Assembly (NCBI GenBank): GCA_964508025.1
Contig: CAZDSF010000008.1
Coordinates: forward strand, 22,088 to 83,465
From: an uncultured Anaerolineales bacterium
GTDB taxonomy: Bacteria > Chloroflexota > Anaerolineae > B4-G1 > SLSP01
Direction: 5' to 3'
DNA length: 61,378 nucleotides
Of the stretch, positions 1,051 to 45,306 are shown in pieces. The notes below the pieces were generated by a model, which searched no databases, had not been told where the DNA came from, and saw only the letters and a list, made by a program, of their open reading frames with translations. Positions within the stretch are counted from its first letter, which is position 1; the number at the start of each line of letters is the position of its first letter. The position numbers and the translations under genes are program-made.

Positions 1051-1189
1051 GTCGAAAAATTCTAGGTCAAAACGGTTGAAAGTCAATGTCAACTGCGCGT
1101 GTTGAGATTTTGAACTGGCGCTTGCGAAAACCGCCCCCTGACGTATAGTTACCACTGATTTTTATTTTTGAGGGAGCAGGTGCAGCGGT

Positions 1190-3628: not shown

Positions 3629-3713
3629 CTGAGACGCTGGCCCTCCGTTTACAGCTCACTGATTTTTTATCTCTCTGGGGACACTCCGGTGCTAACACAC
3701 ACCATGCGAGCAA

Positions 3714-3808
3714 GAAAAAAGTGAGTCGAGAGCAGTGAGCAGTCAAGGCAGCGAAGTCTGCTCACTACTTACTGCTCTCTGTTCACCAGTTACTATTTTT
3801 GCAGGAGG
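3714..3808 (+). promoter_or_regulatory. Conserved 5'-leader element, copy A: gaaaaaaGTGAGTCGAGAGCAGTGAGCAG..CTGCTCAC..CTGCTCTCTGTTCACCAGTTACTATTTTTGCAGGAGG, 6 nt before the start codon
   Basis: Nested inverted repeats GAGAGCAG/CTGCTCTC and GTGAGCAG/CTGCTCAC, followed by TCACCAGTTACTATTTT and a GGAGG Shine-Dalgarno. Near-identical copies occur at 16238-16330 and (minus strand) 45051-45140, each directly upstream of a start codon. Confidence 0.55.
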
Positions 3809-3814
3809 TATCGA

Positions 3815-4174
3815 ATGATGACGTTTCGTGATGAGTTGCGCGCTTGCGAGGCGTGCGGCAAGGCTTTTGTGTTTACTGTGGAGGAACAACGGCGACAGGA
3901 TCAACTGGGATTTCCGGTTGTAGCGCCCGATCGCTGTCCGGCATGTCGTGAGAGCGCCAAACCACAGCCGGGATTGCATCCGGGCATTGTCAAGTGGTAC
4001 AGCCAGGAGAAAGCGTATGGCTTTCTGACGCGGGCTGAGGGAGCGGAAATCTTCTTTCACCGGACGGGCGTATCCGGGGATCCAGAAAAGACCCTGTGCG
4101 AGGGCGCGCATGTCTGGTACGAGATTCAGGAGACGGATCGCGGGCTGCAAGCCTACAACGTTCACGAGCGGTGA
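3815..4174 (+). CDS. Zinc-ribbon (CxxC...CxxC) plus cold-shock domain protein
   Basis: 119 aa. CEACGKAFVF...CPACRE is a 4-Cys ribbon. GIVKWYSQEKAYGFLTRAEGAEIFFHRTGV is a CspA-type RNP1/RNP2 cold-shock fold. The stop overlaps the next start (GTGATG). Confidence 0.8.
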   Translation: MMTFRDELRACEACGKAFVFTVEEQRRQDQLGFPVVAPDRCPACRESAKPQPGLHPGIVKWYSQEKAYGFLTRAEGAEIFFHRTGVSGDPEKTLCEGAHVWYEIQETDRGLQAYNVHER

Positions 4175-9298: not shown

Positions 9299-10990
9299 AT
9301 GGAAATCAAAGAAATCGCCAAACACCTACACCAGATTCCGTTGTTCCAGGGTTTGAAGGATGACCGCGACGAGCTAGAGCTCTATCGGGTCGCTGCGTTA
9401 GCTAAAGAGGCGGAGTATGCTCCTGGAGAGCGGCTGTTCGGGCAAGGAGAATCCGCCGATCGGCTGTATTATGTGTTGCGCGGCCGGATCCAGTTGACGC
9501 GCCTGGGCGCCGATGGTGTCCGCGCCGACCTGGGGATGAAGCGTCCGGGAGATGCCTTCGGCGAGACTGGGCTGCTGGTCGGCGACTTCCACGACGCCAC
9601 CGCTGAAGCGCTTTCGCCGGTGCGCTTGTTGTATCTGGAGCGTGGGGAATTCCTCACGCTCTTGGAGCAGCGTCCTCGATTGCGGCAGCGGTTGGCGCTC
9701 AGCCCGGAGACGCTGCGAAAGCAGCACATTCCGCGCTTTTCCTGGATGCGCGATGACGAGTGGGCGGTGCATCTGGGTCGCCGGCATCTGATGGGGCTGA
9801 TGCGGCGGATCATGCTGCCTGTGTTGGCGCTGGTGCTGGTTGTAGTGCTCGCCTATATGCTGGCGCGAGTCTCGGCAACTGCGGCGCTGGTCGTGGGGCT
9901 GCTTTTGAGCCTTTTCCCGGCGGGGCTGTTGGCCTGGGACTATATTGACTGGTACGATGATCGCTTCATCCTCACCACGCAGCGGGTAGTTCATCTGGAG
10001 CGCAAAGGCCCTTTTGGCAGTATGTCCGAGGAAGCGGCGCTGGATGACATTCAGGATGTCCTCGAAGTGCGCTCGAATGTGGTGGCGAATCTGTTGGATT
10101 ACGGCGACATCATCCTCCAAACGGCGGGCGGCACCGTGAAGATTGACTTCACCGAAGTGGGGCAGCCTAGCTTGTGGCGCCAGCTGATCCTGCGGGAGAT
10201 GGGGCGGATTCAGGCGCGCCGCGTGGTGCGGATGCGCGGCGAGACGCGCCAACAGCTCGAGGCCCGGCTGAATCTGGCGCCGCCGCCGGAACCAACGGTC
10301 GTACAGACCGAGCCGCCGAAGCCGCCTTCTCCGGTGACGTTTTTCGCTAAAACCTTTCTGGAATTGCTGTTCCCGGCGAGTTGGGTGGAAAGTCCTGATA
10401 AGCTCACGATCAGATGGCGGCGTTTCTGGCTGCCGGGATTTTTCCACTACTGGTGGGTCTCCATGCTTTTCTTGCTCATCACTTTTGGCGGTCTGATCGT
10501 GTTGGCATCGCTAGAGCCGGCAGATATGGCATACTGGCTGATTCCCTGGCTGTTTGCGGAAGTGGTTTTGCTGTGTGTGGTGCTGTGGTACATCGAGGAC
10601 TGGCGCAACGACTTCTTCGAGATCACGCCGACCCACATCATTCATGTGGATCGCAAGCCGCTGTGGGGGCGCATCACCCGCCGCGAGGCGCGGTTGGATC
10701 GCATCCAGAACATCACCTCAGATGTGCCGAGTATCTGGGCGCGAATGTTGAAATACGGCTCAGTGACGCTGGAGACCGCCGGCGCCGAAGGGCAGTTCAA
10801 GATTTGCTACGTGCGGGATCCGGAGCGCGTGCGCGCCGAAATCTCCCGGCGGCAGCAGGAATTCCGCAAGCGCGACCTGACTCGCCAGGCGGCCCAGCGT
10901 CAAGACGAGCTGCTCAGCTGGTTTGCGATTTATGATTCGCTGCGTCATCCGCAGACCTATCCAGGTATGGAGGATGAGAATCTGGCATGA
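9299..10990 (+). CDS. cNMP-binding domain fused to a YdbT-like membrane protein with two bacterial PH (bPH_2) domains
   Basis: MEIKEIAKHLHQIPLFQGL...FGQGESADRLYYVLRGRI...GDAFGETGLL is a CAP/cNMP-binding fold. Two TM hairpins are each followed by WDYIDWYDDRFILTTQRVVHLERKGPFG.. and WYIEDWRNDFFEITPTHIIHVDRKPLWG.. (bPH_2/YdbS-YdbT-like). Confidence 0.7.
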   Translation: MEIKEIAKHLHQIPLFQGLKDDRDELELYRVAALAKEAEYAPGERLFGQGESADRLYYVLRGRIQLTRLGADGVRADLGMKRPGDAFGETGLLVGDFHDATAEALSPVRLLYLERGEFLTLLEQRPRLRQRLALSPETLRKQHIPRFSWMRDDEWAVHLGRRHLMGLMRRIMLPVLALVLVVVLAYMLARVSATAALVVGLLLSLFPAGLLAWDYIDWYDDRFILTTQRVVHLERKGPFGSMSEEAALDDIQDVLEVRSNVVANLLDYGDIILQTAGGTVKIDFTEVGQPSLWRQLILREMGRIQARRVVRMRGETRQQLEARLNLAPPPEPTVVQTEPPKPPSPVTFFAKTFLELLFPASWVESPDKLTIRWRRFWLPGFFHYWWVSMLFLLITFGGLIVLASLEPADMAYWLIPWLFAEVVLLCVVLWYIEDWRNDFFEITPTHIIHVDRKPLWGRITRREARLDRIQNITSDVPSIWARMLKYGSVTLETAGAEGQFKICYVRDPERVRAEISRRQQEFRKRDLTRQAAQRQDELLSWFAIYDSLRHPQTYPGMEDENLA

Positions 10991-14721: not shown

Positions 14722-16137
14722 ATGGATACATACGACGCTTCTTCAAAACCTCGAAACTCTGTGTGGCTGGGGCTAGGCATCGCTGCGGGTTTGGCGACAG
14801 GATTGCACTTTCTGCGGCGGGCGTTGGCGCGCCGCGCTTTGCCGCCGCTGATCAAGGCGCGAGAAAGCGCCGGCGTTGCGCTGATTACGGGCGCGTCGAG
14901 CGGCATCGGCGCGGGGTATGCCCGCGCGTTGGCGCGGGCGGGCTACGATCTGATCCTGGTGGCGCGGCGCCAGGATCGGCTGGCGGCGCTGGCGGAGACG
15001 TTGCGCGCCGAGCACGGCATCATGGTGGAAGTGTTGCCTGCCGATCTCGGCGTTGCCGAGGATGTGGCGCGGGTCGCGGCGCGAATTGCGGGGCTGCCGG
15101 CGTTGGATTTCCTCATCAACAACGCGGGTTTTGGACGGGGGGAGCCTTTTGCTACGAGCGATATTGCAGGGCAGTTGGCGATGGTGCGCGTGCATCTGGA
15201 TGCGACGATGCAACTGACGCGCGCGGCGCTGCCCGGCATGATCGCGCGCGGGCGCGGCGCCGTGGTCAATGTGGCGTCGGTGATGGCGTTCTATCCGCTC
15301 CCTGGCAGCGCGACGTATGCGGCGACCAAGAGCGCGCTCAAGGTCTTCACGCAAGGGTTGCATCAGGAATTGCTGGGGACGGGCGTGCGTGTGCAGGTGC
15401 TCTGCCCCGGTCTCACCCGCACGGAGTTCCACGAGGCGGCGAATATGTCGGTGGATCAGGCGCCGCCGCTGGCGTGGCTGACGGCGGAGAAGGTGGCGGC
15501 GCATTCGCTGCGCGATCTCGCCGCCGATGCCGTTATCTCTGTGCCGGGCGCGGGCTACGCGGCGCTGACATGGATCGCCGGGTTGCTGCCGGCGGCGCTC
15601 TTCGATGGGATTGGGCGGGCTTACACGGCGCTGCGGCGTAGCAAGCCGCGCGGCGCTTTCGGCGGCTTTTCGCGGCGGACTTACGCCAGTGTGGGAGCGG
15701 CGTTAGCGGATTTGCGCGCGATTGTTCAGCAGCGCGCGCAGGTGCGCCGGGCCTTCGCGCTGCTGGAGCCGGCTTTCCGTGAGCGGCTGATGCTGACGGT
15801 GACGCAGGTGAACGGCTGCCGCTATTGCGCCCAGGCGCACGCGCGGATGGCGCTCGAAGGCGGGCTGGAGCAGGAGGAAATTGACGCGCTGCTCAGCGGG
15901 GCGGTGAATGCCTGTCCGCTGGATGAGGTGACGGCGTTGCTCTACGCGCAGCACTGGGCCGAGACCGCGGGAAATCCGACGCTGGCGGCGCGAGCCAAAG
16001 TGCGCGAGTGTTACGGCGAGGAGAAGACGGCAGCCATCGAGATGACGCTGCGCATGATCCAGGCCGGGAATCTGTTGGGCAACAGCTTTGATTATGTGTT
16101 GTACCGGCTCTCAGGGGGACGCTGGGGCGTTGGGTAG
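14722..16137 (+). CDS. Fusion of a classical SDR oxidoreductase (N-terminal) with a carboxymuconolactone decarboxylase / AhpD-like domain (C-terminal)
   Basis: ALITGASSGIGAGYARALA and YAATKSALKVF are the SDR motifs. The C-terminal TQVNGCRYCAQAHARMALEGG is CMD/AhpD-like (CxxC...H). Confidence 0.8.
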   Translation: MDTYDASSKPRNSVWLGLGIAAGLATGLHFLRRALARRALPPLIKARESAGVALITGASSGIGAGYARALARAGYDLILVARRQDRLAALAETLRAEHGIMVEVLPADLGVAEDVARVAARIAGLPALDFLINNAGFGRGEPFATSDIAGQLAMVRVHLDATMQLTRAALPGMIARGRGAVVNVASVMAFYPLPGSATYAATKSALKVFTQGLHQELLGTGVRVQVLCPGLTRTEFHEAANMSVDQAPPLAWLTAEKVAAHSLRDLAADAVISVPGAGYAALTWIAGLLPAALFDGIGRAYTALRRSKPRGAFGGFSRRTYASVGAALADLRAIVQQRAQVRRAFALLEPAFRERLMLTVTQVNGCRYCAQAHARMALEGGLEQEEIDALLSGAVNACPLDEVTALLYAQHWAETAGNPTLAARAKVRECYGEEKTAAIEMTLRMIQAGNLLGNSFDYVLYRLSGGRWGVG

Positions 16138-16237
16138 ATGGGGAGTTGGGGAGATGGGGAGCAGAGGAGCTGGGGGGCAGAGGAGCAACCAATAACTGTT
16201 TTCCAAGATCCTGGTGCTGGCGCATATTAATGAGGAC

Positions 16238-16330
16238 GAAAACAGTGAGTAGAGAGCCGTGAGCGGGAGAGAGGTATACCCTGCCTACTACGACCTGCTC
16301 TCTGCTCACCAGTTACTACTTTCACAGGAG
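16238..16330 (+). promoter_or_regulatory. Conserved 5'-leader element, copy B: gaaaacaGTGAGTAGAGAGCCGTGAGCGG...CTGCTCTCTGCTCACCAGTTACTACTTTCACAGGAG
   Basis: Identical 3' module and near-identical 5' module to copy A. Ends 8 nt before the S9 peptidase ATG. Confidence 0.55.
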
Positions 16331-16338
16331 ATTGCGGA

Positions 16339-18342
16339 ATGGCAAAAGAGAAACGTTTGGTGCGGGCGCGGGATTTGTACCGCCTGGAGTTGACGACGTA
16401 TGCGGAGCTTTCGCCGGATGGGCAGCATGTGGTCTATGCGGTGTCGCAGGTAGATGCGAAGACGCAGAAGAAATCCTCAAATCTGTGGATTGCGCCGACG
16501 AATGGCGGCGCCCCGTATCGCTTCACTTTTGGGAAGCAAGTGGACGCGATGCCGCGCTGGTCGCCGGATGGGACGCGCATCGCTTTCTTTTCCAATCGGG
16601 GTGAGGCGACGCAGATGCAGCTCTACATCATCCCCTTTGCCGGCGGAGAGGCGCGCCCACTCACGACCCTGAAGGGCGATTTCGACAGCTTTGAGTGGGC
16701 GCCCGATGGCAAGTCGCTGGTCATCCAGTTTCGCAAACAGGATGCCGAGGTCGCCGCGCGGGAGCAAGATCCGCAGAAGAAGGAATTGGGCGTGGTCGCC
16801 CGCCACATCACGCGCCTCTTCTACGCCCTCGATGGCGTGGGCTACTTGCCCCAGGAACGCTGGCATCTTTGGATCGTGGATGCGGAAAGCGGCGAGGCGC
16901 AGCAGTTGACCGAGGGGGCGATTCACGATGAGATTGGGCCGCGCTGGTCGCCGGATGGCGCCTCGATTGCGTTCTTCTCCAACCGCGCCGCCGACCCGGA
17001 TATGGAGCCGGCATTGGTGGATCTGTTTGTCGTCCCGGCAGAAGGCGGCGAGCCGCGTCGCCTGGAGACGCCAGTCGGGGAGAAATACGCACTCAGCTGG
17101 TCGCCGGATGGGCAGCAGATCGCCTATCTGGGGCGCGAAGGGGCCAAGGATTGGTGGAAACCGCAGCGTTTGTGGGTGGTCCCCGCCGATGGGAGCGCGC
17201 CGGCGTCTTGCCTTACCGCTGCCCATGATGTGAGCTTCGAAGCGGCGACGCTCACCGATACCGCAGGTTCGATGAATCTGCCGCCGGTTTGGTCGAACGA
17301 TGGGACGCGGCTCTATGCGCAGGCTTCGCGGCATGGCGGCACGGGACTTTACGCTGTCACTGTCGCGGATGGGGCGTTAGAGCCGGTGCTTGCCGGCGCG
17401 GAAGTGGTGGGCGCGTGGAGCTTCGATGCTTCACAGACGCGGTTGGCGTATCTGCGCAGCACGCTGCAAGACCCGGTGCAGGTGTGGATGCTGGATGTGG
17501 CTTCGCGGGCGACCTGGCAGTTGACGGCACTGAATGCGAAGTGGTTGCGCCGGGTGGCATTGGGCGAGATCGAGGAGGTGTGGTTCAAGGGACCAGATGG
17601 CAACGATCTCCAGGGTTGGATTCTCACGCCGCCGAATTTTGATCCCGGCAAGCGCTATCCCTCGATCATGGAAATTCACGGCGGGCCGCTGGCGCAGTAC
17701 GGCTACAGCTTCATGCATGAGTTCTACTATCTGGCGGCGCAGGGTTACGTCGTCTACTTCTGTAATCCGCGCGGCGGGCAGGGCTACGGCGAAGCGCATG
17801 CGGGGGCGATTTGGGGCGCGTGGGGCAGCGTGGATTACGCCGACCTCATGGCGTGGGCGGATTATGTCGCCGCGCTGCCGTACATTGACCCGGAGCGGAT
17901 GGGCGTCACCGGCGGGAGCTATGGCGGCTACATGACGGCGTGGATCATCGGGCACACGCAGCGCTTCAAGGGCGCGGTGGCGCAGCGTTGTGTAAGCAAT
18001 CTCATCAGCATGTGGGGCACGAGCGACTTCAACTGGACGTTCCAGGAGCCGTTTGGCGATCAGCCGCCCTACGAGAGCATCGAGACGCTGTGGGCGTGCT
18101 CGCCGGTGCGTTACATCGGCAACGCGACGACGCCGACGCTCGTGATCCACAGCGAGCGCGATTTACGCTGTCCTATCGAGCAGGGGCAACAGCTGTTCAC
18201 GGCGTTGAAGCGGGCGGGCGTGGAGACGGAATTTGTCATCTTTCCAGAAGAGTCGCACGGGCTATCGCGCGGTGGACGCACGGATCGGCGCATTGCGCGG
18301 CTCAAGCACATTCGGCGGTGGTTCGACCATCATCTGGCGTGA
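16339..18342 (+). CDS. S9 family serine peptidase (acylaminoacyl-peptidase / prolyl oligopeptidase type) with N-terminal beta-propeller
   Basis: Repeated WSPDG blades. GGSYGGYMTAW (nucleophile elbow), HSERDLRCP and EESHGL complete the triad. Confidence 0.9.
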   Translation: MAKEKRLVRARDLYRLELTTYAELSPDGQHVVYAVSQVDAKTQKKSSNLWIAPTNGGAPYRFTFGKQVDAMPRWSPDGTRIAFFSNRGEATQMQLYIIPFAGGEARPLTTLKGDFDSFEWAPDGKSLVIQFRKQDAEVAAREQDPQKKELGVVARHITRLFYALDGVGYLPQERWHLWIVDAESGEAQQLTEGAIHDEIGPRWSPDGASIAFFSNRAADPDMEPALVDLFVVPAEGGEPRRLETPVGEKYALSWSPDGQQIAYLGREGAKDWWKPQRLWVVPADGSAPASCLTAAHDVSFEAATLTDTAGSMNLPPVWSNDGTRLYAQASRHGGTGLYAVTVADGALEPVLAGAEVVGAWSFDASQTRLAYLRSTLQDPVQVWMLDVASRATWQLTALNAKWLRRVALGEIEEVWFKGPDGNDLQGWILTPPNFDPGKRYPSIMEIHGGPLAQYGYSFMHEFYYLAAQGYVVYFCNPRGGQGYGEAHAGAIWGAWGSVDYADLMAWADYVAALPYIDPERMGVTGGSYGGYMTAWIIGHTQRFKGAVAQRCVSNLISMWGTSDFNWTFQEPFGDQPPYESIETLWACSPVRYIGNATTPTLVIHSERDLRCPIEQGQQLFTALKRAGVETEFVIFPEESHGLSRGGRTDRRIARLKHIRRWFDHHLA

Positions 18343-22363: not shown

Positions 22364-22452
22364 ATGGCTTGAACCGGCATCCGGGTGTACAATGAGCGGG
22401 GTGAGTCACAAGTCATGAGTCTTGACTTCTGACTTTAGATGCAGGAGGCAGA

Positions 22453-28183: not shown

Positions 28184-28305
28184 ACAATGCGCAGTTTCTC
28201 TTTGGCTGCTTGCGCCTTGGGTCTGCGCATCTCTGAAAAAATCGGCATTGGCTGCTATTGCTCTCTGCTTACGACGAACTGCTCTCTAGCTTTTGGGAGG
28301 TGACT

Positions 28306-29361
28306 ATGACTTTGGAGCGTCCCGATTTGACCGGCGTGGCGCCTGATATTGTGGCTTATATCGAGGCGTTGGAGCTGGCGCTCGAAATGGCATCGGCAGG
28401 CCCGCGCCGCGCGCGCGCGATCACACCGCTTGCCGAGGATGCGCTGGCCGAACTCAGCGAGCCGCCCACCACGCGCCATGTGATCACCCTCAGCCGGGGA
28501 GGGCTGATCAAACGGACGCCCCGGCATCTCTACGGGCGCCAACGCCGGGGCGGCATGGGCATCTTCGATCTGGAATTGCCTGACGATGACGCGCCCGCCT
28601 TGTTGTGCGTATTGGATGAAGCGCAGATTGCGCTGGCGTTTACCAGCGAGGGCCGGGCATTTCGCTTTCCTGTGGCGGAACTGCCTCAGACCGCAGTGCG
28701 GGCGCGAGGTCAGCCGCTTTCACGATGGGCGCCGTTGCGCCCCGGCGAGCGGGTGATTGCGCTGCTCCCCGATCAGGGTGGGGCGCAGGTGGCTTTGCTC
28801 AGCGAGCGGGGGCGCGTCCAGCGCGTGCGAGCCAGTTTTGTGGGCGGGCACATGATCCCCGGTATGCGTTTCCATGAAGTGAAGGATGGCGGCCCCTTGG
28901 TGAGCGCGTGTTGGACTTCAGGGCGCGATGATCTCTTCATTGCTACGCAGCAGGGTTTTGCGGTGCGTTTTCCCGAAGAGCGCGTGCATGACACCGGTTC
29001 CTTGGGGATCCGGTTGGAGCGGAACGACGCGGCCGTGGGGATTGCTGCTGTGACCGATGCGAGCCAGGTCTTTCTGCTCAGCGCCGATGGCAAGGGGGCG
29101 ATCCGCACGATGGAAGGCTTTGCCGCGAACAAGATGCCGGGTGCGGGTGGTAAGGCGGCGCTCAAAACCGAGCAACTGGTGGGGGTGCTCACTGTCATGC
29201 CGGGCGATGATCTGCTGGTGATTTCTCGCCTGAGTAAGATCATCCGCTTCCAGGCTGAAGAGGCGCCGCCGAAAACGGGCGTGGTGCAGGGCGTGAATTG
29301 CATCGCGTTGCGCAGCGATGAAGCAGTAGCCGCGGCGGTTGCTGCTGTGGTCTCCGGTTAG
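28306..29361 (+). CDS. Stand-alone GyrA C-terminal-domain (beta-pinwheel) paralog carrying a GyrA-box-like RQRRGGMG
   Basis: MTLERPDL.. with gggagg RBS. Repeated blades: HVITLSRGGLIKRTPRHLYGRQRRGGMGIF..., GGAQVALLSERGRVQRV..., etc. Confidence 0.7.
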   Translation: MTLERPDLTGVAPDIVAYIEALELALEMASAGPRRARAITPLAEDALAELSEPPTTRHVITLSRGGLIKRTPRHLYGRQRRGGMGIFDLELPDDDAPALLCVLDEAQIALAFTSEGRAFRFPVAELPQTAVRARGQPLSRWAPLRPGERVIALLPDQGGAQVALLSERGRVQRVRASFVGGHMIPGMRFHEVKDGGPLVSACWTSGRDDLFIATQQGFAVRFPEERVHDTGSLGIRLERNDAAVGIAAVTDASQVFLLSADGKGAIRTMEGFAANKMPGAGGKAALKTEQLVGVLTVMPGDDLLVISRLSKIIRFQAEEAPPKTGVVQGVNCIALRSDEAVAAAVAAVVSG

Positions 29362-29980: not shown

Positions 29981-30100
29981 GGGCGTCGGGGATTAGCGCA
30001 GCGTGATGGTTGACCGGTAATTAGCAACAAGGCATGACGGCGCGGAGACGGTTTATCCTTCCACCTTCATCCTTTATCTTTCTTTCTCAGGAGGTTTTCC

Positions 30101-41817: not shown

Positions 41818-41898
41818 GAGCTACCTCCTATGAAAGTATGAAGGCTGAAAGCGGAAGGATGAATAAATGCCGAGCATACACCCATTACGCAGTACGCA

Positions 41899-42318
41899 TT
41901 ACTCGTTACTGTGACTGGGCAGGTCGGCGACGGAGAAACTTTCGGGCAGCAGGTCGGCGAGCCGCAATTCGCGGTACGCGCCATCGGGTGTCCCGATGAG
42001 CACGGGCGTGTCCACGTCGGCGAATTCGCGCAGCACTTGCCGGCAGGCGCCGCAGGGTGTGCCGCCGTTAGCGGTGATGACTGCCAGCGCCAGCACCCGC
42101 CGCGCGCCTGCCGCGACCGCAGAAGTGATGGCGACCTGCTCGGCGCAGAATCCCAGAGGATAGACGGCATTCTCCACGTTGCTGCCGGTGAAAGTTTGCG
42201 CTTCCTCTGTGAGTAGCGCTGCGCCCACTTGATAATGCGAGTAGGGCGCGTAGGCCCGTTCCCGCGCCTGAATGGCTGCGTGGATGAGTTGGGTGCGTTG
42301 TGCTGCAGAAAGGCTCAT
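41899..42318 (-). CDS. cdd: Cytidine deaminase
   Basis: CAEQVAI...PCGACRQVLREF, zinc-binding CDA motifs. Confidence 0.9.
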   Translation of the reverse strand: MSLSAAQRTQLIHAAIQARERAYAPYSHYQVGAALLTEEAQTFTGSNVENAVYPLGFCAEQVAITSAVAAGARRVLALAVITANGGTPCGACRQVLREFADVDTPVLIGTPDGAYRELRLADLLPESFSVADLPSHSNE

Positions 42319-45140: not shown

Positions 45141-45306
45141 GAACTATTTCATCATAAACAAAAAAAGACCCGTTCGCCAGCCATCCACTGGTGTTTCCAG
45201 GTCTTATGGAATCCTCACTCTGTTGGTTCATGTGATTTTAGAATTACCTTGAGTCAAATTATAGCATACTGGAAGGGAAGCGCAACTATAAGGCGGTGTT
45301 TTGGTA

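Follow-up and report, generated by a model that had tools for sequence, protein, structure and literature searches.

This study concerns a 61,378-nucleotide stretch of contig CAZDSF010000008.1 (positions 22,088 to 83,465) from an uncultured Anaerolineales bacterium, hereafter called the window, and a short non-coding repeat that stands directly ahead of three of its genes. The copies are designated c1 (3708-3808, plus strand), c2 (16232-16330, plus strand) and c3 (45150-45051, minus strand). c1 precedes a gene for a zinc-ribbon/cold-shock-domain (CSD) protein (ATG at 3815), c2 a gene for an S9 peptidase (ATG at 16339), and c3 glmU (ATG at 45042-45040, minus strand). The downstream products, assigned by Pfam as zf_Tbcl+CSD, Peptidase_S9 and NTP_transferase+Hexapep (GlmU), are mutually unrelated. 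In all three copies, the distance from the end of the copy is 2-3 nt to the Shine-Dalgarno (SD) sequence (AGGAG or GGAGGAG) and 6-8 nt to the start codon. A sequence-only reading of this DNA had described such an element, at these three places and at this distance from the starts of unrelated genes, and all of this holds.

The copies form a family. Local alignment gives 77% identity over 100 nt for c1 and c2 (3708-3807 versus 16232-16330), 74% over 80 nt for c1 and c3, and 79% over 34 nt for c2 and c3; the last 50 nt before the SD align without gaps between c1 and c2 (41/50 identical, 82%). The shared 17-mer core TCACCARTTACTAYTTT, with up to three mismatches allowed, matches the window (60% G+C) only at 3783-3799 and 16306-16322 on the plus strand and at 45074-45058 on the minus strand. 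The expectation is 0.06 matches, and none of 100 shuffled windows contained three or more. The motif GCAGTGAGCAG, with at most one mismatch, has six matches against 1.48 expected.

All three copies have the same general architecture. In c1, an A-rich lead-in (3708-3720) is followed by the 5′ heptamers GTGAGTC/GAGAGCA/GTGAGCA (3721-3741), a spacer (3742-3757), the 3′ heptamers CTGCTCA/CTACTTA/CTGCTCT/CTGTTCA/CCAGTTA/CTATTTT (3758-3799) and, after TGC, the SD AGGAGG (3803-3808). The corresponding parts of c2 are the 5′ heptamers at 16245-16265, the 3′ heptamers at 16281-16322 and the SD AGGAGA at 16326-16331. On the minus strand, c3 has 5′ heptamers GAGCGCG/GAGCGCA/GTGAGCA (45137-45117), 3′ units CTGCTCA/CCCCCTCA/CGGCTCA/CCAATTA/CTATTTT (45093-45058) and the SD GGAGGAG (45057-45051). 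Because the 5′ units approximate the reverse complement of the 3′ units, a stem arises, and the inverted arms of c1-c3 can form an imperfect hairpin of about 75 nt.

The head-to-tail arrangement of 7-nt units is that of heptanucleotide tandem repeats, akin to long simple-sequence repeats (LSSR) and STRR. Autocorrelation at a lag of 7 is significant in all nine copies tested (z 3.8-5.5, p≤0.0005; 4.8, 4.4 and 5.3 for c1, c2 and c3), with 46-56% identity at this lag versus about 14-38% at others. Tandem Repeats Finder reports none of the heptamers in the copies, because the units are degenerate, and autocorrelation is needed to detect them. Copies differ in size by whole heptamers. The copy at locus L007, in a relative, is 14 nt (two heptamers) shorter, and the window subfamily is 14 nt longer than a sister subfamily described below, the extra stretch holding most of the 17-mer core. 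Every copy keeps the 3′ module; the 5′ arm is dispensable, being absent from the copies at L048 and L071 (9895-10003).

Occupied and empty sites in related genomes

A small dispersed repeat family was one explanation put forward in the sequence-only reading. It is supported by empty orthologous sites, by occupancy that varies between strains, by assembly breaks within copies, and by further copies before unrelated genes in other Anaerolineales contigs. A genome scan for the core plus GGAG gave eight matches with one true relative (L007/L063, on a metagenome-assembled contig of an uncultured Anaerolineales bacterium). A metagenome scan gave 50 matches, of which four loci are true relatives and represent three distinct copies (L034, L048, and L043/L063, which repeats L007). 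Two scans of viral contigs gave no matches. The proteins downstream of the L007, L034 and L048 copies are unrelated by Pfam. A pattern that requires GGAG recovered these copies, so they carry no information on SD adjacency.

The sister subfamily, with units of the form TGTTCCTGCGG..AAAATGTGAGTCGTGAGTTGTGAGCGG..GCGACAGCTCTCTTCTCACGGCTCACTGCTCTCTATTTTCCGAGGAG, is represented in Ga0247854_1000243 and GCA_047291895.1; L070 and L084 belong to one 104-kb contig, and L071 to a near-identical strain. The L070/L084 contig has six copies in 41.7 kb, about one per 7 kb. Four of the six directly precede a start codon (in gyrA, the CSD gene, purA and a nitroreductase gene), one is parted from gyrA by another repeat, and one lies past a PBP stop codon, in a 3′ untranslated region (UTR) between convergent genes. 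A profile of this subfamily recovers c1 (E=4e-7), c2 (7.5e-5) and c3 (8e-3) from the window. c1 is 77% identical to a sister-species copy over 86 nt, and the 5′ arm of c2, GTGAGTAGAGAGCCGTGA, is identical to an L084 copy across 18 nt. All nine copies found without an SD constraint (three in the window, six in L070 and L084) are oriented with local transcription, and eight have a co-directional gene downstream.

The clearest case of insertion is gyrA, for which the window itself provides the empty site. Here, a promoter (TTGCGA-N16-TATAGT, 1122-1149, plus strand) and a short leader, CTGATTTTTATTTTTGAGGGAG (1155-1176, plus strand), precede the ATG at 1190 without any unit. L070 and L071 have the same promoter and leader, then an inserted unit. 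In L071, whose gyrA is 87% identical to that of the window, the resident leader ends in CGCTGATTTTCTGGGGAA and is followed by a unit of about 130 nt and then the ATG. The unit thus came in after the native promoter, separating the old SD region from the ATG. We regard this comparison as decisive; with the unit comes a new U-rich tract and SD.

Sites occupied in the window are empty or otherwise filled elsewhere. The element is absent from three orthologues of the S9 gene (79-82% amino-acid identity). One relative, L067, keeps the order SDR-S9 (SDR 72% identical), with a spacer of 56 nt and no element, versus 201 nt in the window. Likewise, the gyrA-CSD spacer measures 42-94 nt and lacks the element in L075 (CSD orthologue 80% identical), L077, L080 and L081, versus 186 nt in the window; profile searches of about 70 kb around CSD orthologues of 59-68% identity found no copies. 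At the CSD site, L076 has GCGATTT four times before the SD and L077 has AACGTTNN five times. The order gyrA-CSD-glycosyltransferase is conserved in all examined contigs of the 13 detectable CSD homologues. Between the leader hairpin and the SD of glmU, the window has c3, L083 has (CCATCGC)x4 and L084 has about 230 nt of unrelated sequence. The stretch next to the SD is thus a hot spot at which short, lineage-specific arrays settle.

Several side observations pertain to these loci. Among 5.8 billion proteins, no more than 13 homologues of the zf_Tbcl and CSD fusion (3815-4174) are detectable, and its gene lies between gyrA and a GT4 glycosyltransferase gene in every examined contig having upstream sequence. 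L066 carries a lineage-specific tandem array of roughly 17-nt repeats (GCAGCCCGGCTGCTCC-like) at 850-1000, upstream of its S9 orthologue. The end of L083 consists of (GTGATGG)n; read on the other strand, this gives the CCATCAC units that precede its glmU.

Insertion is also recent and polymorphic. L070 and L071, with flanking DNA about 98% identical, differ in occupancy at three sites. At the def/Mrp junction of L071, the insertion starts directly after GATTTTCCGAGGAG and the unit ends TATTTTCCGAGGAG; where units lie in tandem, GAGGAG abuts directly on TTGGCATG. Contigs start or end in or beside copies or arrays in five cases (L073 1, L074 1, L076 1, L083 13190-13225 and L071 18031-18065).

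We interpret c1-c3 as copies of a young, lineage-restricted dispersed repeat of about 100-130 nt, a "leader cassette", and assign this reading a probability of roughly 0.7. The data show that the copies form a family, lie in transcribed leaders with a bias in orientation, were inserted recently and polymorphically, have a 7-nt period and lack covariation. The order within the cassette, from 5′ to 3′, is heptamers of the GTGAG(N)2 type, a spacer that varies, complementary (N)2-3CTCAC/CTGCTCN heptamers, a U-rich CTATTTT and an SD-like GGAG. Units would be copied into gene leaders behind the resident U-rich/SD end and ahead of the start codon, spreading through homology between U-rich/SD ends or by way of a candidate hairpin-recognising transposase. 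The target gene would then adopt the U-rich tract and SD of the unit as its translation-initiation region. That the cassette serves the downstream gene as a portable translation-initiation region is a tentative part of this picture, to which we give slightly less than an even chance. Arrays would gain and lose 7-nt steps, probably by slippage or by recombination between units. The imperfect hairpin would be a by-product of the inverted arrays rather than a selected RNA switch, although it may stabilise or insulate the mRNA as an incidental side effect.

Several points weigh against this reading. The empty and filled sites are compared between species or strains whose non-coding flanks align poorly, and the filled Mrp site of L071 ends at a contig end and may in part be an assembly artefact. 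Propagation is inferred, no transposase, target-site rule or other mechanism having emerged, and copy number genome-wide is extrapolated from 61 kb of the source genome. The constant 6-8 nt distance to the start, and the location of all window copies ahead of genes, would also fit selected regulation. A function of the stem at the RNA level may be compatible with the data as well, given that the predicted hairpins of c1-c3 fold better than shuffled sequences.

It has to be considered whether the repeat is a non-autonomous mobile element, such as a miniature inverted-repeat transposable element (MITE), a REPIN or an element of IS200/IS605-PATE type, moved in trans by a hairpin-recognising transposase. 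This would be compatible with the cassette reading. The inverted arms and their hairpin favour it, as do a small 5′ palindrome (TGCGGYAYANYACCGCA) in the sister subfamily, GTAG...CTAC motifs in several copies, the high copy density, the strain polymorphism and the assembly breaks. Insertion recurs after U-rich+GGAG, where no classical target duplication is obvious, and a second repeat with terminal inverted repeats coexists in the relatives. Yet the inverted arms of the cassette are internal, not terminal, and differences in whole heptamers point to slippage or recombination. No transposase or RAYT was seen in the sampled loci (about 0.2 Mb, genes not systematically annotated), and the two scans of viral contigs gave no matches. 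The gene-orientation bias also exceeds what is usual for MITEs or REPINs. On balance, we consider this explanation somewhat unlikely.

The second repeat just mentioned is about 335-390 nt long and 81-83% identical between loci (L070 6762-7142, L084 13330-13703, L065 17083-17416). It is MITE-like: its ends carry short inverted repeats (TGTTCAGCC), and its interior has GC-rich palindromes. It is inserted beside or inside leader units in relatives and is absent from the window. A third leader repeat (L084 13145-13290, L071 7060-7105, L070 17830-17880, L065 1225-1290) combines GTGAAGGT-like 8-mer runs, GATTCGC-like heptamers and TATTTTC-N-GAGGAG before the starts of gyrA, Mrp and purA.

Transcript context and RNA folding

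The leader of glmU shows where the repeat stands relative to a promoter. A conserved extended −10 element (TGCTATAAT, 45258-45266, minus strand) lies upstream of c3, in a promoter region, CAGTATGCTATAAT, that the window shares without change with L083, L084 and L085. Immediately upstream of c3, and outside the repeat, is a terminator-like stem-loop with a U-run (45160-45205, minus strand); in the consensus fold of the window, L083 and L084 leaders, the AAGACC/GGTCTT and CCAG/CTGG stems are kept. Because this conserved promoter and leader hairpin lie upstream, c3 is inside the glmU transcript. In a relative, a related unit separates the gyrA start from its conserved promoter and provides a second such case, and the idea that the element belongs to a transcribed 5′ leader is thereby supported. 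As a side observation, both the stem-loop AAGACCTG..CCAG..CTGG..CGGGTCTTTTTTT and the promoter TGCTATAAT of the glmU leader (45160-45266, minus strand) are conserved in L083, L084 and L085. The stem-loop has no Rfam match and may be a transcription attenuator ahead of glmU.

The sequence-only reading had also allowed for a lineage-specific promoter, and a promoter within the element is not supported. In a more elaborate form, TACTAT would be a −10 box and the GWGAGCAG/CTGCTCWC inverted repeats would be the transcription-factor sites of a regulon. TACTAT does resemble TATAAT, inverted repeats are typical of operators, and homologous regions upstream of non-homologous genes are what defines a putative mobile promoter (PMC3488235). 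Against this, a consensus scan of the three copy regions for a sigma-70 promoter (−35 and −10 boxes spaced by 16-18 nt, with A2 and T6 in the −10) was empty: no −35 lies at 16-18 nt, and c2 has TACTAC, lacking the conserved last T. Transcription starting 7 nt downstream would begin on the SD, some copies have no 5′ arm, and native promoters lie upstream of the units, both in glmU and in L071 gyrA (TTGCGA-N-TATAGT). A DNA-level promoter or operator is thus very improbable. Possible −10 boxes noted by eye directly precede c2 (TATTAA) and c3 (TATGAT); for c3, the conserved promoter further upstream makes such a box unnecessary.

Nor, in the window, is the element simply a terminator of the upstream gene. 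A scan of the three regions for intrinsic terminators (a GC-rich stem with a T-run within 0-2 nt) found none; the T-run starts 9 nt past the stem in the window copies, and c3 has no co-directional upstream gene. The earlier proposal that the element is tied to gene 5′ ends and is not a terminator thus stands for the window, but strict 5′ association does not, given the relative's copy in a 3′ UTR between convergent genes.

Three other possibilities were set aside. Small upstream open reading frames (MRARKK*, MRTKTVSREP*, MFLRY..*) resemble one another because their DNA does, and they have no conserved SD ahead of them. Readings as attC/integron sites or LexA boxes fail on mismatched motifs and on the conserved housekeeping gene order. 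Mimicry of SD/anti-SD pairing by the GTGA/TCAC cores would involve the 16S 3′ end GAUCACCUCC, with which window-type GUGAG pairs over just 4 bp.

The idea of a structured leader RNA, a thermosensor or translational switch controlling a set of genes through its hairpin, came likewise from the sequence-only reading, together with the observation that loop variation was partly compensatory. Some evidence favours it: the copies lie in 5′ leaders, one target is a cold-shock-domain gene, and c1, c2 and c3 fold better than shuffled sequences (z −2.1, −2.5 and −2.3). However, the hairpin is a feature of most copies only, being weak in L007 (z −0.8) and absent in L048, which has a full 3′ module and no 5′ arm. 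Covariation is at the level of shuffled controls by every measure. With six sequences, and hence low power, a double change occurs in one of 18 stem pairs, paired cells amount to 79.4% versus 79.2% in shuffles, and the covariation score is 0.122 versus 0.128; the RNAalifold covariation term of the consensus 18-bp stem is positive (+2.92). Sequestration of the SD is inconsistent as well. Its predicted mean probability of being unpaired at 37 °C is 0.35 in c1, 0.66 in c2 and 0.27 in c3, and predicted accessibility changes little between 15 and 55 °C. Where the SD is predicted to be paired, the partner is not the conserved module; in c1 it lies in the coding region. Rfam gave no matches in the whole window at gathering thresholds, and in 3680-3830 at E≤10 it gave only miRNA-hairpin noise (12-19 bits, versus thresholds of 47-100). 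Considering also that orthologous leaders of close relatives lack the element, a dedicated RNA switch, or a new class of regulatory RNA, is not supported on present evidence, and we regard such a function as extremely unlikely.

Possible remnants and other arrays beside gene starts

Besides c1-c3, the window contains a partial, degenerate copy at 28244-28300 (plus strand), comprising the 3′ module only (CTCTCTGCTTAC..CTGCTCTCTAGCTTTTGGGAGG) and located before a GyrA-CTD paralogue (Pfam DNA_gyraseA_C; ATG at 28306). It is matched by nhmmer at E=2.4e-5 with a profile built solely from copies of another species, which bears out an earlier suggestion of a weaker relative at 28230-28305. A partial copy had also been proposed before moxR (22406-22448). 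No family profile matches there, and the site instead holds a distinct array, GTCACAA GTCATGA GTCTTGA CTTCTGA CTTTAGA (22405-22448), which runs directly into the SD. This array has the joint top lag-7 score of the whole window, and a TG-extended TACAAT −10 box lies upstream of it.

Two possible remnants adjoin the full copies. Upstream of c1, at 3652-3681 (plus strand), GCTCACTGAT with a U-rich tract and GGGGA resembles an older 3′ module. It was recognised by eye only and is not found by family profiles; GCTCACTGAT is identical at 10 of 10 positions to the 3′ module of the L071 copy at 9895-10003. This candidate remnant suggests that a U-rich/SD-like end was already resident when the c1 unit came in behind it. 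Upstream of c2, at 16187-16208 (plus strand), AACCAATAACTGTTTTCCAAGA (cf. CACCAATTACTATTTTGGAGGA) is a weaker candidate, with 13 of 16 positions identical by eye and E=13 in an nhmmer search with the 3′-module profile.

Several further arrays were noted in the window. Just upstream of c2, at 16123-16187, about eight tandem 8-mers (TGGGGAGA/GGAGCAGA) span the SDR stop codon (16135-16137) and give the strongest lag-8 signal in the window. At 41882-41910 (minus strand), AGTAACG AGTAATG CGTACTG CGTAATG runs across the cdd stop, before purA, and at 30039-30087 there is an array, CTTCCAC CTTCATC CTTTATC, apparently in a non-coding spacer. Among the ten best lag-7 windows, at least five lie in spacers or leaders (c1, c2, c3, moxR and cdd-purA), and 30039-30087 is apparently a sixth.

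It may be asked whether SD-adjacent 7-nt units form a post-transcriptional regulon, acting as a platform for an RNA-binding protein (CSD, S1 or similar) that co-regulates translation. There is a strong 7-nt register beside the SD in every copy, orientation is strictly sense, and other leaders in the window have SD-adjacent heptamer arrays, that of moxR for example. At the matching sites, relatives carry heptamer arrays of other sequence (L076 GCGATTT x4, L083 CCATCGC x4), one target itself encodes a CSD protein, and there is a precedent in the TAACTGA repeats of Beggiatoaceae, for which a platform of this kind has been proposed (PMC4679880). The heptamer differs, though, among genes and orthologous sites (CTGCTCA, GTCANGA, CCATCGC, GCGATTT and the AACGTTNN 8-mers), and this diversity argues against a single sequence-specific binder and for a mutational origin. 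With the binder hypothetical and one orphan copy in a 3′ UTR, such a regulon seems unlikely.

A broader alternative is that selection maintains SD-adjacent 7-nt arrays throughout the clade as a general trait of translation initiation regions; the c1-c3 type would be one such array that has become self-propagating. The arrays could serve as a register-specific loading platform for CSD- or S1-like proteins, or as slippage-prone tuning knobs by which leader length and structure shift 7 nt at a time. We find this decidedly unlikely; if it were true, leader evolution would be a repeat-driven process with its own machinery, and not neutral junk.

The leader cassette among known repeats

If the cassette reading is correct, unrelated housekeeping genes (gyrA, glmU, purA, the CSD gene and the peptidase gene) have had their ribosome-binding regions replaced by one repeat. 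This would be a datable case in which leader and SD propagate, beyond the propagation of promoters, with occupancy that varies even between strains, and expression could be rewired quickly. In practical terms, such repeats fragment metagenome assemblies exactly at gene starts and can mislead motif or riboswitch discovery; they might also be used as strain markers.

Among known systems, putative mobile promoters (Matus-Garcia, Nijveen & van Passel 2012; PMC3488235, PMC3575422) are defined operationally, as sequences of at least 50 nt and at least 80% identity within about 150 nt upstream of non-homologous coding-sequence starts (PMC3488235). The 3′ blocks of c1 and c2 (41/50, 82%), with their non-homologous downstream genes, fall within this definition. 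Pairs involving c3 fall below it (less than 80% or shorter than 50 nt), and the full 100 nt of c1 and c2 are 77% identical. As with this class, homologous non-coding sequence of 50-100 nt lies near unrelated starts, is lineage-specific and strain-variable, and is mostly outside Rfam and ISfinder. Unlike it, the cassette stands in the leader, after the native promoters, and contains the SD; its arrays are inverted and have a 7-nt period, and one copy in a relative is in a 3′ UTR.

Heptanucleotide long simple-sequence repeats have been described in general (Mrazek 2007, as cited in PMC4679880). More specifically, TAACTGA direct repeats directly precede the start codons of genes in marine Beggiatoaceae, Cyanobacteria and Bacteroidetes (MacGregor 2015; PMC4679880). 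Their function is uncharacterised; a slippage origin and S1, Csp or CsrA as binders have been proposed (PMC4679880). The cassette resembles them in having tandem, sense 7-nt units within a few nucleotides of the translation start of functionally unrelated genes. It differs in that its units are degenerate, CTGCTCA-like, paired with an upstream inverted array and part of a unit of about 100-130 nt. A canonical SD follows the cassette units, whereas TAACTGA sites are mostly without one, and the host phylum, Chloroflexota, is different. The cassette is not a TAACTGA repeat: CAGTTA in its 3′ module is the reverse complement of TAACTG, on the opposite strand.

REPINs and REP elements, mobilised by RAYT transposases (Bertels & Rainey 2011; PMC3116915), are like the cassette short extragenic repeats, present in many copies, lineage-restricted and fast-evolving. 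Their two inverted arms pair into a long imperfect hairpin, and such arms and hairpin are present in most copies of the cassette, though weak in L007 and absent in L048. The arms of the cassette, in contrast, are tandem heptamers, the 5′ arm is optional, an SD is carried, and there is a bias in orientation and towards start codons. With respect to MITEs, the sole repeated flank is U-rich+GAGGAG, found before the unit and at its end. This could represent a target duplication, a target preference or homology for recombination.

Finally, the Correia elements (CREE) of Neisseria are hairpin repeats of about 100-150 nt that are often upstream of genes, are co-transcribed with them and can alter expression. 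Their terminal inverted repeats are defined and 26 bp long, and they duplicate a TA target, insert in both orientations and supply no SD. The cassette shows neither defined terminal repeats nor a TA target duplication. CREE in 5′ UTRs are mentioned in PMC3488235, and the cassette is likewise a hairpin-forming dispersed repeat in 5′ UTRs. It is a member of no Rfam family and belongs with the dispersed intergenic repeats that act as leaders.

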